Assembly: GCA_024672315.1 (NCBI GenBank)
Contig: GCA_024672315.1_4714.1
Length of the DNA stretch: 64,000 bases
Direction: 5' to 3' (one strand)
Source of the DNA: a phage
Positions within the stretch are counted from its first letter, which is position 1. The number at the start of each line of letters is the position of its first letter. Under the pieces are notes generated by a model. It was not told the DNA's origin. It was given only the letters and a program-made list of their open reading frames with translations, and ran no database searches. The translations under genes and the position numbers were made by a program. Below are positions 3,905-45,139 of this stretch, piece after piece.

Positions 3905-4924
3905 TTACACCGCCACCTTAGCCTTGATAGCCGGATGTGATTGATATCCAACAAACACAAAGTCTTCGTAACGGTAATCCGTAATACTTTCCGGTTTACG
4001 TACGATTGTTAGCTTCGGTAATGGATACGGCTCACGACTGAGCTGCTCTTTAACCTGTTCGAAGTGGTTGTGATAGATGTGGCAATCTCCACCCGTCCAC
4101 ACGAACTCACCAACGTCCATATTCAGCTGTTGGGCAAGCATATGTGTTAACAACGAATATGATGCGATGTTGAACGGTGTTCCAAGCAGCGCGTCCTGCG
4201 ATCTCGCGATCAGCATACACGACAAGGCACGTGTTGGTACGTTATGCGCATTCAACCAAAGTTCCGTTTCACTGTGTCGTACGTCATCCGTAACCCACTG
4301 GGTTCTTAATACGTCATTGTGCTGGACATAATCAACACGTTCATCGATCGTGAGTTCGTGGGTATAGAACTGATAAAATGAATGGCACGCGGGAAGCGCC
4401 ATATCGTCTAAATCACCTACGTTCCACGCGCTAACGATGATCCGTCGAGAATCAGGATCTTCTTTAAGCTGACGCATCACGTTTGCAATCTGATCGTGAG
4501 GTTTAACATACACGAGGTGTTTTAGCATACCGCCATCAAGAATGCCGCAATATTCATAGCCGCGTTGCATCAACTCACGAGTACGTTCTGTATCGTGCGG
4601 AACAACCACTTTGTAGTCGATCCATTCCCGCCATTGTTTGCCGTAAATCGGTCCTAGATTCCCTTCTTCGTCAGCCCATTCATTCCAAATACGAACACCG
4701 TTATCTTGAAGATAAGCAACGTTTGTGTCGCCGTTAAGAAACCAGAGCAGTTCGTGGATAACGCTCTTAAGGTGAATCTTCTTGGTGGTTACCAGCGGAA
4801 ATCCTTTCTTCAAGTCAAAACGCATTTGACGCCCGAATACAGAACGGGTCCCGGTGCCCGTGCGGTCGGCCTTATCGCGACCGTTATCCATGATGTCTTG
4901 CAAAAGGTCCAAATACTGTTTCAT
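3905..4924 (-). CDS. thyA: thymidylate synthase family protein (ThyA-like, with two insertions)
   Basis: 339 aa; N-terminus MKQYLDLLQ...DRTGTGT...[21 protein letters not shown], catalytic [25 protein letters not shown] and WTGGDCHIY closely match E. coli ThyA as recalled; GAGGA Shine-Dalgarno; ATGA overlap with upstream ORF. Confidence 0.85.
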
Positions 4925-5124: not shown

Positions 5125-5289
5125 CGTTTTTCACCTCGTCGTAAAAGTAAATAGAGTTTTGTCGAGACGCCCTAATTACTTACAACGTCGGTTCTCCCGG
5201 CTTCAGAGAATTCTTAAAATCCGTTAGTTTTGATAGATAGGGTAAGACGGCATAAAAGCCTCCCATTACGGGAGGCTCTATTAATCAGC

Positions 5290-5838
5290 TTATTTCACAA
5301 GAACAGCGAATTCGAGAACATGAATAGCTTCATCGTCCATCGGATTTGTCGTGGTATAACCGACGAAGCAATAGCCCATATCCACGATAAACTCTCTAAG
5401 TTTATCGATGACTGATGCCCCGATACGATCGTCAACAGACAGGCGACATTTACGGGTTATGTTTTGCCCGCGAGGAACGCCAGCTAACACGGATAGGAAA
5501 TGTACGATCTGGTTATTGGTTGCGAACTGCACGTAATCATCGTAGTGCTTAAGGTCTTTCATCGCAGACTCTACCGTCATACGACGACCAGGTGACACAT
5601 ACTCAGAATAAGAATAAGCTGCAATCGTGCGGCGGTCTTCAGTGAGGTAAGTATTCCCATCAGGATGATAACTCTCGATTGTTCCGTCTTCATAAGCGAC
5701 GGTCACAACAGGTGCGCCGTACTCGTCGCGACCAAAATCAATTTTACATTTATCCGAAAGCGGTAGAACCGTGCAAGGCTTTGCGTTGTTCTCATCTGGA
5801 AGATCGTAACCGCTCATCATTTTCAAAAACATAGACAT
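5290..5838 (-). CDS. hypothetical protein (tandem paralog A)
   Basis: 182 aa; N-terminus MSMFLKMMSGYDLPDENNAKPCT resembles the neighbouring ORF 5925..6458. Confidence 0.5.
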   Translation of the reverse strand: MSMFLKMMSGYDLPDENNAKPCTVLPLSDKCKIDFGRDEYGAPVVTVAYEDGTIESYHPDGNTYLTEDRRTIAAYSYSEYVSPGRRMTVESAMKDLKHYDDYVQFATNNQIVHFLSVLAGVPRGQNITRKCRLSVDDRIGASVIDKLREFIVDMGYCFVGYTTTNPMDDEAIHVLEFAVLVK

Positions 5839-5924
5839 AATAGAACCTCATGATAATAGATAATAGAAATGATAGATAGTACAACAAATTGAGGGGGTAT
5901 TATCCCACCCCCTCGTAGGGATTA

Positions 5925-6458
5925 TTATCTGACGACTGCGGTGATTTTGCCATCCATGCCGTCGTAATATGCTGTTAACTTACCAGTAAACAACTCTTCT
6001 AAAAGATGATTTACATCACTAACAAAGTTAGGATTGCCCGCTTTTACAAACTCGATATGACGCGTTTGTTTTACATCACGATCGATTAAACGGATTTCCA
6101 ACAACGCACAAATAAGGCTATCGTTAAGTTTGCCATTCAAATCCAACGCTTTCCCATACGTCGTAGCACGGACGTCTGCATACATACGGTCAACATCATC
6201 CTTCCCAAAACCACAGGAATAGGCGTACGTTGCGATGGTATTACCATTGTCCATTACATAAACGTTACCGCCTGGGTAATCGATGAATCGTTGATCCTTA
6301 TCGCCATGAGCGACGAACTCCAGTGTCGGTCTACCTAGTGAATCACGATTGAATTCGATTGTGGTCAAGCGATCTGGTACCACATGTAACGTAAACGGTT
6401 TTGCGTTGTTACGATCGCTAGTATCGCAGTTAGCCATTACTTTTACAATAACACTCAT
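5925..6458 (-). CDS. hypothetical protein (tandem paralog B)
   Basis: 177 aa; N-terminus MSVIVKVMANCDTSDRNNAKPFT resembles ORF 5290..5838. Confidence 0.5.
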   Translation of the reverse strand: MSVIVKVMANCDTSDRNNAKPFTLHVVPDRLTTIEFNRDSLGRPTLEFVAHGDKDQRFIDYPGGNVYVMDNGNTIATYAYSCGFGKDDVDRMYADVRATTYGKALDLNGKLNDSLICALLEIRLIDRDVKQTRHIEFVKAGNPNFVSDVNHLLEELFTGKLTAYYDGMDGKITAVVR

Positions 6459-40261: not shown

Positions 40262-40900
40262 TTAACCTAATTTACCACCGGCGATATTGGTGAAATCTTC
40301 GCCATCAGGAACTTGCAGTAGGATACGTGCCATGTCCCAGTTGGTTAATGTGATTGCTTTATCATCGATACTCAGTTCTGGTAGGTCGAGTTCATGATCA
40401 TCAAACTCGTAGGAAATACTCCACGTTTCATCTGTTTTAGGATCGGTCATCAATACACCGTCTGTTACACGCATGTAGTCCGGATGCAGTTCATTACTGA
40501 ACGTACTGAACGGATCGGTGTAACATTCAGCATACCCCTCGATCTGCTGACGCTGTGCCTTCGTACGTAATTCAGGGCACGCCATGATCAGTTGTCGAGA
40601 TATACCGTTTGCCGCACGGAAGTCTTCCACGGTGATACATGGCATAACCACATCGTCATGGAAGATGTTCTCCGATTGTCTCAACAGCGTCTTACGGAGT
40701 TCAGCATAGTTTATCTGATTAAATGCGTCGAACGTTGCTAACGATTCAGCGTAAAAATGCTTTACGTGTTCGCTTGCGCCGCCGAGGCTATTCATCAGCT
40801 TGTGGCCGTACTCCATAAAGCTTTTATCGAGACCGGAGGACATTTCTCCGAACCTCAGTGCACGATAACTGTCTCGTCCACCTGTAAATATTTGCGCCAT
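40262..40900 (-). CDS. hypothetical protein
   Basis: 212-aa ORF. Confidence 0.45.
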   Translation of the reverse strand: MAQIFTGGRDSYRALRFGEMSSGLDKSFMEYGHKLMNSLGGASEHVKHFYAESLATFDAFNQINYAELRKTLLRQSENIFHDDVVMPCITVEDFRAANGISRQLIMACPELRTKAQRQQIEGYAECYTDPFSTFSNELHPDYMRVTDGVLMTDPKTDETWSISYEFDDHELDLPELSIDDKAITLTNWDMARILLQVPDGEDFTNIAGGKLG

Positions 40901-40915
40901 TACAGGCGTCCTCCT

Positions 40916-43151
40916 TTAGCAATGGTTGTTAGTTGCTTCTATTTCGTCAAGATACGGTTCTACGTCATCGCCCTCCACGAATTCGTTGAACCAACAGTCA
41001 ATGGTAGAAATAACCGGTGACTGGTGTTCACATTTCTTAGATACCTTAAAAGGTACGTTATTATCCATCATACCGAGTTCGGGTCGAAAACGCCCGAAAT
41101 GTTTCGCAGTCCAAATGTCTGGGACGATATGGTTGTTCATAGCGTCTCCGTCGCTGTTTATCGACTATATCTTCATCCTCATTGCGAGGAGTCTCCCGTT
41201 TGGGTCTGTGTTTAACAGAGCCTACTCTACTCGACGTCGCGTCTTTCGATAGTCTGTGAGCACACATCTTAACAAACATTCGTGGATTCCTAAACAGGTG
41301 AATGTTCTTGTTGAGATGCTTCGCTGCGGATTATTCCCGTCCTACCTCTTTTACCGTACCCAGTTCATTACGCTGGCCCTCATCTATGTCACCACGATGA
41401 GTTGGTGTGTAGTCCGATTACAGAAACTTCCCGTCAATTAGAGAGTTTTAACTACGTTCCTGTTACCAGAAACCAGATCCCGACGGTATCAATAAATCAA
41501 CGTAAGTTATTGATTTAATTGAAAAAACTGAAATCTGCATTATCTAAATCTTCAGTATGGTTCGCTACGCCATACCCGCACATACGTGCAACTTACGTCT
41601 TTCACGTAAGAAGAGACTATATCTTTCACCCTCAGCATTATCTGGTCGGGGCTCCCATTTCGGCGGTCATCTGACCGGTGGTTTCCCACGCCGCTTGGCC
41701 CTAACGCCCGTAAGCGATAGTCGTTGAGCGCATCTCCGTTCTGGAGACTTCGCTGCGGATTCCCCAATCCTTGCCGCTTTTACCATACCCGAATGATTAG
41801 TTCAGCCCCACGCGCTGTTCCCAGGCGTGGTTGGTGGACAAGGCTCTAAGTAGGTTCCCGCATTAGAGAGTTCCTCGTAACAACATTTCTGCGTTACTGG
41901 GCCTAACGACCCTTTCAAGATCATCACGCTTAACCCGATGGTGTTATCCTGCGGATCGCGTTTAACCTTGGTGATTTCAAGACATTGGTTACTGCTTCGG
42001 TCAAGTGATGGGTTTCGAACAAAGCCACACACAATCCCATCGAACGGTGTATCAGCAATAAGCTCATCATGCAGCTCGCTCATCATCGGATGATAATTAC
42101 GGACATGTTCCGCAACGAACGCACGTGCTGCTCTTGGTGAATAACCACGATGGAATAACTTGGATTGGATATGTTCTTTATTGGTTAAAGTAAATGGTGC
42201 GTATGGGAAATGCAGATGATAATAACGATGGTTCGCTGTTATCGAACTGATTACGGTACGCGTGGTAAATGGATGTAATGTACCTAATATGTTTTTACGT
42301 GTGATACCTTTCTTCTTACCGATGAACTCATCGAAAATCGCCGCATGGTATTGCAGCAGCTTCAATTGCACTTTCGCCATCCAGTTTTCTTTCTTTCTGG
42401 CGCTCAAAGGTGTTGTTGGATGATAGATACTGTTCAACGTACCGATAGCATCGATCGCACCTTCCATTTTGCTATCCGCATAACGACCGGTTGGCGTATT
42501 CTCGATAACGAACATCATGGCCGCAGGAAAGCTGATATACTGACTGAAGAACTTATCACGATGAATACGGATGAATTCTCGTAGCGTGTCAACTTTCTCC
42601 GTGTTCTTCGGTCCACGTAACGTCGGTCCTTTATACAAGATCTCCATGATGCGATCGAAGTTCTGTATAAAACTATTTACGCCACGTCGTATCCCGAATA
42701 CATCGAATTGCTGCTCCAGATAGTTCTTGAGTTCGATGGGTCGTTTTACATTTGGACGGTAACTGGCATCAATGAGCCACGTCATCGTTTCAAAGCTTTT
42801 GATATTCAACTCGCTTGCCAGCACGAGATGGACCAACGGGTTAATGAACGCATCGATTCCTTCAGGAACGCGCGCCCACACCGTCGAACGAATCTCCTGT
42901 TCTGCTGGGTAGGTTACAACCGTTTTACAGTTTGGACACACCGTGCCGAGCAGCTCACCACGATTGTAGAAACCACAACCACATTGTGGCGTGATATCCA
43001 ACGTATCGCTGGAGTAAACACGGGTGATAAAACTGTTTAATTTCTTCTTCTCTTCGACGACTTTTGTATCGTAATCGTTCAACAAAATCGGCGTAAAAGG
43101 AAGTTCTGCGAGCTGTCTATCGAAACTCACGATATCGAGCATGATGGCCAT
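40916..43151 (-). CDS. multisubunit RNA polymerase beta-prime-like subunit, N-terminal fragment, interrupted by two putative group I introns
   Basis: Exon 1 (43151..41879) has zinc-ribbon CGCGFY...CPNC and RNPSLDR resembling NRAPTLHR; proposed micro-exon 41543..41531; exon 3 (41153..40916) encodes DGDAMNNHIVP...LGMMDNN resembling DFDGDQMAVHVP...LMMSTNN; spliced length 1524 nt, in frame. Confidence 0.65.
41154..41530 (-). ncRNA. putative group I intron B (377 nt, no ORF)
   Basis: Minus-strand Q-like AATCCGCAGC (41332..41323), R-like GCTCACAGACTATCG (41261..41247), S-like GAAGATATAGTC (41174..41163); AAATC (41516..41512) complementary to exon end GATTT; ends in G; 5' region homologous to intron A. 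Confidence 0.6.
41544..41878 (-). ncRNA. putative group I intron A (335 nt, no ORF)
   Basis: Minus-strand Q-like AATCCGCAGC (41761..41752), R-like GCTCAACGACTATCG (41729..41715), S-like AAAGATATAGTC (41626..41615), GAAA-loop hairpin (41610..41592); starts after an exon U, ends in G. Confidence 0.6.
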
Positions 43152-43243: not shown

Positions 43244-45139
43244 TTAGAACAGGTTGAATGCCCCACCCATGTTGTTACCGCCAACATTCGGACGATCGCT
43301 ACGTGCGTAGATGTTGCCGGAGATGTTACCCAGACCACGAGCACGTGCTGCCATGTTACCACGAACAGCGGTACCTGCCAGGTGCTGGATGTTCTCAGGA
43401 CGGATGGTGAAGCCAGCATCAGCCGCAGCTTCGATCAGCGCCTGCAGTGCTAACGGATCGAAGTCGTAACGCATTGCCCAGCCGGTTTGTTCCCAGCTAC
43501 CAGACAGAACACGATCAATGATTTCGTGACGAGCGACAACACGCTGAGACATCGTCATATCGGTACGGTCGAAGCTGTCTTCCCAAGCTTCTACGGTATC
43601 CGGGTTAGTGATGTTCATCATGTACAGATCGTCCATATCACGAATATCGTGACGGTGACCATCCTGGTGGTTGTAGTAACCCAGCGGGATACGGTTACCG
43701 GTAGCGTAGACCAGCGGTTGGCCGTATTGATATTTCTTGCTGAAGCAACCCAGGGTAGTATCATCGAAGGCACGGTAGAGTGCTTTGTAACCTTCGGAGA
43801 TTTCTTGAACTTTACCGTCAACGTTGCCCGTAAAGATCTTCTCAGCCGCCGGGATCATACGCAGCAGCCAGCTATACTCGCCTTCTTCCGGTACGTCGAT
43901 AGAAATCAGCAGAGACGGATACAGAACCTGTTGCAGGAACTTGTAAATCTGCTCGTTGGTTTGCGTAGACAGATCCAGCGGTGCAGTCACTTCAGGATCC
44001 AGCACCATCGCCAGAGCACCTGGGTTATGCGGACCAATACCACGAGCCGCGTTGCTGATTAAAGACTGTGCCCATGCCATGCCGCTGTTCAGCGTAGCGA
44101 TGGTACCAATCAGACCCAGCACGAAGCTGTTCGGTGTGAACGCATCCAGCTCCAGCGGGTAAACGCTGGTCATCACGTAACGCGGCTGGTACTGTACAGT
44201 CGGCGGTACCGGATAGCCGTTAACCAGAACAGGGCCTTGGTTGAAGGTCGGGTTCTGCGGGCTGTAGGTCAGGTCAATGTAACCGGTGGTGGCGACCAGA
44301 CGCTGTTGACTATCGTAATCGCTCATCGCTTGACGGATGCGGTTAGAGATAGTTACAGTGATGTCAGAACGCACAGGGTTACCAACAATATCGCTGTCCT
44401 GCATACCGCTGGTGTTGTACTGAACGCTGCTGATTGGCTGATCGCTTGCCATCATGCCCAGGTTGAACTGCGGCAGACCCAGTTTATCACCGAGACGGAT
44501 TTCGATCGCGGTTTGGATTGCGTTATCTGCAGCAGACAGCAGGGTGGTTGCCAGATGCGCAGATTCAGCGGTGATTTCATTGGTCACCACAGCCAGACCA
44601 GCGATACGAACAGTACCGTTAGACTTACCGCCAATAGCTGAATACATTGCCGCCATGACTTCGTTGATGAACGTACCGTTCAGGTTATCAACCCAGGTAC
44701 GCGGTACCAGAATGTTACCATGCGGACCTTGTTCTTCACGACGCGGCAGCGGAGCCAGACCAGCAACCAGCGGCAGGACGTAACCGAAGAAGTGGTTATG
44801 ATCACCAACTTTTGCACCGCTCATAACAACCAGGGTCGGATACGGTACGCTGTACTGGTTCGGGTCAACCGCAACAAAGATGAAGTCGTCTTTGAACTGG
44901 GTATCTTCCAGATATTTCTCCATCAGACGACGGAGATTCAGTACCTGCTCGGAGCCGGTATTACGGCTGATACGACGGCTCAGTGTACGGTTGATCGTAC
45001 GCATCGTATGAGTTACTTTAGGACGGTCGGCAAAATCTGCAGCGGTTTCCAGCGCCTCATCAGCACGTTGTGCGGTGCGGGTTTCAGCTGCACGAATTTC
45101 TACATTATCGTTACCGTTATTACGTACGTCTAAGCCCAT
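43244..45139 (-). CDS. hypothetical protein (candidate nuclear-shell/chimallin-like protein, speculative)
   Basis: 631 aa; AAGAGGAA Shine-Dalgarno; directly downstream of promoter-like motif copy 3; chimallin assignment rests only on size, likely early expression and genomic context. Confidence 0.5.
   Translation of the reverse strand: MGLDVRNNGNDNVEIRAAETRTAQRADEALETAADFADRPKVTHTMRTINRTLSRRISRNTGSEQVLNLRRLMEKYLEDTQFKDDFIFVAVDPNQYSVPYPTLVVMSGAKVGDHNHFFGYVLPLVAGLAPLPRREEQGPHGNILVPRTWVDNLNGTFINEVMAAMYSAIGGKSNGTVRIAGLAVVTNEITAESAHLATTLLSAADNAIQTAIEIRLGDKLGLPQFNLGMMASDQPISSVQYNTSGMQDSDIVGNPVRSDITVTISNRIRQAMSDYDSQQRLVATTGYIDLTYSPQNPTFNQGPVLVNGYPVPPTVQYQPRYVMTSVYPLELDAFTPNSFVLGLIGTIATLNSGMAWAQSLISNAARGIGPHNPGALAMVLDPEVTAPLDLSTQTNEQIYKFLQQVLYPSLLISIDVPEEGEYSWLLRMIPAAEKIFTGNVDGKVQEISEGYKALYRAFDDTTLGCFSKKYQYGQPLVYATGNRIPLGYYNHQDGHRHDIRDMDDLYMMNITNPDTVEAWEDSFDRTDMTMSQRVVARHEIIDRVLSGSWEQTGWAMRYDFDPLALQALIEAAADAGFTIRPENIQHLAGTAVRGNMAARARGLGNISGNIYARSDRPNVGGNNMGGAFNLF

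Follow-up and report, generated by a model that had tools for sequence, protein, structure and literature searches.

The interrupted polymerase gene and its predicted exon-intron map

In a 64,000-nucleotide (nt) stretch of phage DNA (the window; contig GCA_024672315.1_4714.1 of GenBank assembly GCA_024672315.1), we analysed a minus-strand gene for the N-terminal part of an RNA polymerase beta-prime subunit, which is interrupted within the codons of its catalytic loop, NADFDGD. Judged by its sequence, the source of the window is, like its close relative vB_EcoM_Goslar (Goslar) of Escherichia coli, a nucleus-forming jumbo phage; DNA identity between the two is about 97-98% in the region. The interrupted gene is assigned by homology to the N-terminal beta-prime subunits of the non-virion RNA polymerase (nvRNAP), of the phiKZ gp55 type. 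An earlier note, made from the letters of this DNA without database searches, had listed open reading frames (ORFs) and intron core motifs here, and reading of the sequence between 40800 and 43300 found all of them at the minus-strand coordinates given. Two ORFs represent the gene in unspliced form:

43151..41802, minus strand: ORF of 449 amino acids, exon 1 read into intron A; carries a CxC...CxxC zinc ribbon and VRNPSLDR, NADFDGD absent
41140..40916, minus strand: small ORF; DGDA is encoded just upstream of its ATG

The codons between them are very probably split by two independent ORF-less group I introns, named A and B here, whose double splicing would restore the protein. The predicted order in the precursor messenger RNA (pre-mRNA) would be:

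43151-41909 (41909..43151), minus strand: exon 1, ending ...AUC UUG AAA GGG U; collinear with Goslar to 41911; boundary fixed by Goslar, an intronless relative (L128) and a metagenome allele (L134)
41908-41544 (41544..41908), minus strand: intron A, group I, 365 nt; follows U41909 and ends in G41544; a clean 365-nt insertion relative to Goslar
41543-41531 (41531..41543), minus strand: micro-exon AUAAUGCAGAUUU, 13 nt; collinear with the Goslar exon sequence ATAATGCCGACTT
41530-41154 (41154..41530), minus strand: intron B, group I, 377 nt; follows U41531 and ends in G41154, 9 nt beyond helix P7
41153-40916 (40916..41153), minus strand: exon 3, C GAC GGA GAC GCU AUG AAC ... UAA, encoding (F)DGDAMNNHIVP... 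to the stop; collinear with Goslar from 41140

The boundaries were located by comparison with relatives. A blastn comparison with Goslar gave three collinear blocks, in which window 43300-41911 corresponds to Goslar exon 1, window 41543-41158 matches Goslar sequence beginning two bases later, and window 41140-40800 corresponds to the last exon of Goslar. Positions 41908-41544 are missing from Goslar, which reads ATC CTC AAA GGT TAT AAT GCC GAC TT (I L K G Y N A D F) unbroken, and ...ILKGYNADFDGDAM... is uninterrupted both in Goslar and in the intronless relative, which is 65% identical. This relative (protein P0002, DNA record L128), where the gene again has a chimallin neighbour, reads LILKGYNADFDGDAMNHH uninterrupted, and its DNA across the exon 3 boundary, GACTTTGATGGTGATGCCATGAAC, is uninterrupted as well. 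In L134 the exon end GAAAGGGT is kept and a different intron sequence follows immediately after GGGT. The ends of the insertion relative to Goslar are unambiguous and place the 5' splice site of intron A between 41909 and 41908 (AAAGGGU followed by CGUUAG). Since the guide pairing of intron A is weak when taken alone, this boundary rests on comparative evidence.

The micro-exon codes for the last two bases of the Tyr codon, for Asn, Ala and Asp, and for the first two bases of the Phe codon. Joining the three exons gives a spliced mRNA of 1494 nt and a protein of 497 amino acids, in frame through ...YNADFDGDAM... and reading ...SVMILKGYNADFDGDAMNNH..., which agrees residue for residue with intronless homologues across the junctions. 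The alignment to homologues that the earlier note had proposed as a check thus bears the splicing model out once the 5' site of intron A is corrected. In the Pfam family PF00623 (cut-off 25.3 bits) the 497-residue product scores 36.9 bits, and the unspliced ORF gives no match to this family. The predicted complementary DNA (cDNA) of the window would read GAAAGGGT joined to ATAATGCAGATTT joined to CGACGGAGACGCTATG, that of Goslar GGTTATAATGCCGACTT joined to CGACGGTGACGCT joined to ATGAAC, and a tryptic peptide, GYNADFDGDAMNNHIVPDIWTAK, would span both window junctions.

Both interruptions carry a group I intron core

The whole window was scanned on both strands against 4227 Rfam families in an E<=0.01 mode. 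Two matches were obtained, both on the minus strand to RF00028 (group I intron) and both covering model positions 1-253 in full, including the P3-P8 core: 41154-41521 (47.8 bits, E 4.7e-9), which is intron B, and 41593-41929 (30.8 bits, E 5.5e-4), which is intron A. Since both are full matches to this one family and no other family matched at E<=0.01, the features exceed chance. The covariance-model search suggested in the earlier note therefore found what that note expected, with both scores lying under the gathering score of the family. Together with the Goslar comparison, these matches support its central claim: the NADFDGD codons are split by a pair of adjacent group I introns with a 13-nt micro-exon (41543-41531) between them. 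The core elements found by reading the sequence are:

41761-41752 and 41332-41323, minus strand: Q-like element AATCCGCAGC
41729-41715, minus strand: R-like element GCTCAACGACTATCG
41261-41247, minus strand: R-like element GCTCACAGACTATCG
41625-41615 and 41173-41163, minus strand: S-like element AAGATATAGTC
41615..41722, minus strand: P7 of intron A, GACUAU (41722-41717) with AUAGUC (41620-41615)
41163..41254, minus strand: P7 of intron B, GACUAU (41254-41249) with AUAGUC (41168-41163)

The R-like element of both copies follows the pattern GCTCA(A/C)(C/A)GACTATCG. Fold models were built by hand with the Rfam alignment as guide. The GACTA and TAGTC motifs, noted earlier as able to form P7, pair in both introns as GACUAU/AUAGUC, and in each this helix is pseudoknotted, in the expected order, with P3 (CUCUC/GGGAG). 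Between the P7 strands of intron A lie peripheral helices labelled P7.1/P7.2, the 3' strand of P3 and the P8 region as placed by Rfam; between those of intron B lie the stretch where P7.1/P7.2-type helices would sit, the P3 3' strand and P8. Both models contain P1, P2, P3, P4, P6/P6a, P7 and P10 with zero non-pairs in the window sequence. Intron B additionally forms P5 and P8, and intron A three 3' hairpins, a P5-extension helix and the helices that lie between P7 and P3. For intron A the covariance model places P1 elsewhere, in a hairpin GAUGAUCUU/AGGGUCGUU from 41929; this was set aside because the cut would fall inside conserved codons.

The models accommodate natural variation. Three copies of intron B (window, L007 and Goslar) differ at 16 sites, 10 of them within modelled helices, and two copies of intron A (window and L007) at 12 sites, six of them within helices; every modelled pair is preserved. 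Because a plain MAFFT alignment puts the cores of A and B out of register, covariation was counted within each intron type only. The P3-P6 core is homologous between the two introns (79.5% over 44 nt, plus the shared motifs), and the 3' hairpins of intron A resemble those of other introns at the locus (89.6% over 48 nt). No ORF in either window intron gave a Pfam match, including one of 71 residues in A, so that a homing endonuclease is absent from the window copies; sister copies carry one.

Guide sequences share out the 13-nt exon

The sequences that would align the exons are the following:

41899..41908, minus strand: guide of intron A, CGUUAGGCCC, at the very start of the intron
41474..41486, minus strand: guide of intron B, CCGUCG followed by GGAUCUG (CCGUCGGGAUCUG), which pairs with the ligated exons
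41490..41516, minus strand: hairpin AAAUCAA/UUGAUUU in the P1 loop of intron B; contains AAATC

For intron B, the ligated exon sequence CAGAUUU plus CGACGG was slid along the first 150 nt of the intron. One perfect antiparallel partner was found: all 13 positions pair, 11 as Watson-Crick and two as G-U pairs, a score equalled by 5 of 5000 shuffles. Its GGAUCUG forms a 7-base-pair (bp) P1 with CAGAUUU of the micro-exon, with the U41531-G41480 wobble exactly at the 5' splice site, and its CCGUCG forms a 6-bp P10 with CGACGG of exon 3, directly adjoining P1. This P1 is also formed in the unconstrained minimum-energy fold. The earlier note had taken AAATC (41516-41512) as the guide of intron B; that motif sits in the local hairpin listed above and would mispair with the Goslar exon, and the guide is instead 41486-41474. 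Goslar has CCGACUU in the exon and GAGUCGG in the guide, which amounts to two compensatory changes (A-U to C-G and U-A to C-G) together with one one-sided change, U-G to U-A. We regard these compensatory exon and guide changes as the strongest single sign of selection on intron B to splice.

In intron A, GCCC (41902-41899) pairs with GGGU of exon 1 (41912-41909) to give a P1 with a U41909-G41902 wobble, and CGUUA (41908-41904) pairs with UAAUG of the micro-exon (41542-41538) to give a P10 of 5 bp. A change of G41907 to A in L007 turns a U-G pair of this guide pairing into U-A. Both upstream exons thus end in a U held by a U-G wobble, P1 of intron A being short and not significant alone, and both introns end in G (G41154 and G41544) and have a P10. 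Within the micro-exon, P10 of intron A takes up bases 2-6 and P1 of intron B bases 7-13, which leaves base 1 unpaired. Because it serves both introns without overlap, either intron can splice first.

Proposed splicing pathway

In the proposed pathway, the guide of each intron would pair with the end of the upstream exon to form P1, with a U-G wobble at the cut. Free guanosine would attack after the exon-terminal U, and the released exon end would then attack after the terminal G of the intron while the guide holds the downstream exon in P10. Two such canonical group I reactions, independent and in either order on one pre-mRNA, would restore the Mg-binding loop of this essential polymerase. If the micro-exon were skipped, with GGGU joined to CGACGG, the reading frame would be lost; a productive RNA would need both introns correctly removed. 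The folds, the boundaries, the guide pairings with their covariation and the restored conserved protein can be read directly from the DNA, and from them we infer the order of the two reactions to be free and no helper protein to be needed. Introns A and B of the window are ORF-less deletion derivatives of mobile introns, and their mobility would now depend on endonucleases of relatives or on recombination.

Points against autocatalytic double splicing, and alternative explanations

Several points weigh against this interpretation. That A and B are actually removed is something we infer from sequence, and long-read transcriptomics of phiKZ detected no splicing for the predicted RNA polymerase introns of that phage (PMC10914365). 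A default Rfam scan of the window at the gathering score (50 bits) gives no match, since both introns score below it; the Goslar copy of intron B, at 46.9 bits, falls below 50 too, though the Goslar record labels it Intron_gpI. P1 of intron A has only 4 bp, and its guide pairing involves 9 of 11 bases, is matched by 32% of shuffles and is not significant alone. Minimum-energy folding is only modestly better than that of shuffled sequences (z -1.5 and -2.3). In intron B the P9 region is wholly gone, leaving only GAUAAACAG after P7, and this loss might weaken the choice of the 3' splice site.

It is unlikely that removal at the proposed junctions depends on a chaperone or maturase of the phage or host, with P9-less B and short-P1 A as the introns most in need of one. 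The sequence evidence gathered here fits such dependence as well as it fits self-splicing. Truncation of P9 leaves derivatives of the T4 sunY intron active in vitro. The short 3' tail of intron B (9 nt) and the 4-bp P1 of intron A speak for a helper. Transcription is separated from translation in nucleus-forming phages (PMC12908238), and therefore the ribosome-assisted folding described for T4 introns (as cited in PMC10914365) would be unavailable, a further point in favour of a protein helper.

It is very improbable that the introns are decayed relics that no longer splice, leaving a broken gene whose polymerase function is supplied from elsewhere or by separately translated fragments. Both introns do lack endonuclease ORFs, intron B has lost P9 and the scores stay under the gathering score. 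A 13-nt exon is untranslatable alone, however, and without splicing a core gene would lose its catalytic aspartate loop. The exon 1 product is 100% identical over residues 1-419 to gp247, the Goslar counterpart, and the gene is therefore under selection. The co-evolution of guide and exon with two compensatory changes argues in the same direction, as do the sparing of modelled helices by all 28 variable sites and the presence of at least one intron at this place in 13 of 13 Goslar-like sequences examined.

The exact junctions of the earlier note differ from ours at one site. Its boundaries 41544/41543, 41531/41530 and 41154/41153 stand, and its 5' site of intron A, 41879/41878, does not: the site is 41909/41908, 30 nt upstream. 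With intron A confined to 41878-41544, ten extra residues, SLGPVTQKCC, would precede YNADFDGD in a 1524-nt mRNA. That model is in frame, its exon ends in U and its intron in G, and the CC-Y of its ...QKCCY product is loosely like VCAAY of E. coli, which we counted in its favour. We nevertheless find it scarcely credible. No such insert occurs in Goslar or in the intronless relatives P0002, P0003, P0004 and P0010, which read LKGYNADFDGDAMN, LTAYNADFDGDEMN, VKGFNADFDGDQMN and VKGYNADFDGDQLN; the 30 nt belong to the 365-nt insertion relative to Goslar; and L134 diverges right after GGGT. The same 30 nt hold the guide GCCC and helix P2 (41897-41893/41881-41877), inside which 41879 falls, and the 507-residue product drops to 23.5 bits in PF00623, under the cut-off. 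The mRNA is accordingly 1494 nt long, and SLGPVTQKCC is read-through of the intron. The earlier note was thus a good catch with one wrong junction, and the locus is not the near-unprecedented event that it might have seemed.

Removal of the whole 755-nt interruption (41908-41154) as one composite or nested intron (twintron) can be dismissed as next to impossible: the two cores do lie close together and their P3-P6 segments are homologous, but excision in one piece would take NADF with it and put the codons out of frame (GGG U joined to C GAC...), each intron has its own guide, terminal G and P7, and the two sit side by side with a coding exon between them, each occurring alone in other phages (B without A in Goslar, A without B in L134).

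Intron combinations at the locus in related phages

Returning to two independently spliced introns, we compared the locus in 13 Goslar-like sequences taken from viral and metagenome scans, the Goslar record and a Logan contig, some of which are possibly redundant. Seven intron combinations at four sites were found within the same 26 coding bases:

A + B: window only
B (with endonuclease) + C: Goslar
A + B + C, with two 13-nt exons (ATAATGCAGATTT, CGACGGKGAYGCT): L007, L129, L131, L133, L136 and L137
A alone, with a 323-residue I-HmuI-like HNH gene in the P1 loop: L134
D alone (after AAYGCT, between A and D of NADF): L132 and L135
D + a C-type intron, with an 18-nt exon between: L006
D, contig truncated: L138

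The commonest arrangement is A + B + C, with three introns within 26 coding bases (L007 5244-6365 and five further contigs), and the unit of A, exon and B therefore recurs in six contigs besides the window. An intron-free allele was found in none of the 13 sequences, the only one encountered being that of the 65%-identical relative. In L134 (NFYZ01000026.1), the endonuclease ORF of intron A lies between the 5' splice site and the guide sequence, and its product is 27% identical (E 2e-26) to the endonuclease of Goslar intron B.

Intron B occupies the same site in Goslar, where its core is 96% identical; the Goslar record (NC_048170) annotates it as Intron_gpI, with an HNH endonuclease gene, between gp247 and gp185. 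That copy carries a 336-residue HNH_3/NUMOD1 endonuclease gene inside a long P9 stem, whereas intron B of the window has lost both the ORF and P9. Intron A is missing from Goslar, where a third intron, C, lies 13 nt downstream instead, and the coding sequences (CDSs) are not joined in the record. The second 13-nt micro-exon of Goslar, CGACGGTGACGCT, lies at 4246-4258 of that record (L001) and is followed by intron C (4259-4613, 355 nt), which is unannotated, follows a U, ends in G and falls between DGDA and MNNH. The annotated start of gp185 falls within this intron, whose Rfam match is only partial (16.7 bits, E 0.32). In L006, positions 5252-5976 comprise the C-type intron D and, after the 18-nt exon, a second C-type intron whose upstream exon apparently ends in C (GAUGCC), giving a putative C-G pair in place of the U-G wobble.

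A further intron, of 484 nt, lies between N and A of NADFDGD in Pseudomonas phage T2P, a Phikzvirus (L003 1546-2029), and holds a 37-residue remnant annotated 'HNH homing endonuclease'. With T2P counted, five insertion sites fall in about 31 coding bases. The 3' hairpin of the T2P intron (GGGTATGG...CCATACTGAA) matches those of A, C and D, its 3' end thus resembling that of window intron A, so intron modules occur in more than one genus.

Comparison with known introns

It is already established that group I introns lie at catalytic residues of jumbo-phage polymerase genes and that intron B is labelled in the Goslar record. Introns in the phiKZ RNA polymerase genes (gp55/gp56, gp71-73/gp72 and gp178-180/gp179) have been predicted (PMC10914365, PMC11512511), for gp55/56, gp72 and gp179 since 2002 as cited in these two papers, and an intron in PhiPA3 gp210 was characterised in 2024 (PMC11620839). 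As here, the group I introns of phiKZ and PhiPA3 lie at catalytic residues of multisubunit polymerase genes, often with HNH endonucleases, and phiKZ gp55 is the orthologue of the window gene (PMC10914365, PMC11512511, PMC11620839). They are, however, single, lie at another base position and have no micro-exon described; the PhiPA3 intron interrupts the virion polymerase beta subunit, whereas those of the window interrupt the non-virion beta-prime subunit.

The core motifs of A and B (AAUCCGCAGC and GACUAU/AUAGUC) match those of the T4 td, nrdB and sunY introns and of the SPO1/SP82 DNA polymerase introns with I-HmuI. These phage-type introns likewise have additional helices inserted between P7 and P3, and the I-HmuI-like HNH genes of the sister copies are a further common feature; the T4-like subgroup assignment of the window introns was made by eye from the Rfam alignment. 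Phage genes with more than one group I intron, a small exon between introns and possible exon skipping have been described in Twort (orf142), phiNIT1 and SIOphi (PMC11878797, with its citation of Landthaler & Shub 1999). In the window the 13-nt internal exon is used wholly by two guide pairings, and the passages on phiNIT1 give no exon size; sister phages of the window have two 13-nt exons in a row, unlike the Twort and phiNIT1 cases as described there. Tandem group I introns with very short exons between them occur in fungal mitochondria (PMC8393795), as here, although those introns are organellar and maturase-dependent and the present case is in a bacteriophage.

The literature searched yielded no description of intron A, Goslar intron C, the 13-nt exons, full use of an exon by two guides, or the combinatorial polymorphism. 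No paper on introns in the Goslar polymerase gene was found, and the Goslar genome paper does not mention introns. On micro-exons between phage group I introns, the passages found contain only the phiNIT1 'small exon' remark.

A possible contested insertion site

A broader reading is possible, though we hold it to be doubtful: the catalytic-loop codons (26-31 bases) may be a landing pad for which a small guild of related group I introns competes, and these with their I-HmuI-like nicking endonucleases may act as weapons and immunity determinants between co-infecting Goslar-like phages, with combinations reshuffled by recombination and a 13-nt spacing that is not accidental. Such a role has been shown for PhiPA3 gp210 against phiKZ. 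If the landing-pad reading were true, an A + B allele crossed with a B + C allele and recombining in the shared intron would give A + B + C, 13 nt would be the shortest exon able to pair in P10 with one intron and in P1 with its neighbour, and the locus would never be intron-free in Goslar-like phages.

Apart from this reading, the locus has consequences for annotation and for intron biology. Annotation of Goslar-type genomes wrongly breaks up the catalytic subunit of the phage's main transcription enzyme into fragments: gene callers give the 449-residue read-through and an orphan of 74-79 residues, and the true 497-residue protein would arise only after two or three splices. The 449-residue form constitutes database cluster P0001 with 159 member sequences, and automated gene calling therefore routinely reports the truncated or extended form. 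An exon of 13 nt consumed by the guides of two ribozymes would be close to the tightest group I packing that still allows independent splicing, and its repetition in sister phages would offer a natural test of splice-site choice and exon skipping. Combinations of endonuclease-bearing and ORF-less introns in near-identical phages show clearly how introns are gained and lost, and possibly how they hop between sites, within the codons of an active site, and intron endonucleases are already known to mediate competition between nucleus-forming phages.

Gene identity and genomic context

The assignment to the nvRNAP beta-prime N-terminal subunits agrees with the zinc ribbon, the NADFDGD double-psi beta-barrel, a chimallin neighbour and homology: in a tblastn comparison, identity was 31-35% over about 95% of the length to annotated nvRNAP beta-prime subunit 1 genes of RAY, Noxifer, Eowyn and many others. 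The neighbour is:

43244..45139, minus strand: chimallin (phage nuclear shell) gene, directly upstream; annotated 'nuclear shell protein' in Goslar

The corresponding neighbour gene in L128 carries the Pfam domain PF25677 (Chimallin_Phikzvirus), and the order of chimallin and polymerase genes is that of phiKZ gp54-gp55. Directly downstream of the polymerase gene lies a minus-strand ORF of 212 amino acids (40262-40900), which gave no match in a Pfam search and is found at the same place in Goslar (gp184) and in L128.

Two observations extend beyond Goslar-like phages. The core of intron A (window 41674-41761, minus strand) is 85.6% identical over 88 nt to a stretch of Av-05 (NC_025830; L130, record 65-152), an unrelated coliphage of the Vequintavirinae, just downstream of the CDS of its terminase large subunit. 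This suggests an unannotated related intron in the terminase gene (terL), the CDS ending near the start of the circular record. Among the matches listed, more than 120 viral contigs contain the 14-mer AATCCGCAGCGAAG, which A and B share at the P4/P6 junction, and its two or three copies in L054, L055 and L068 hint at other multi-intron loci.

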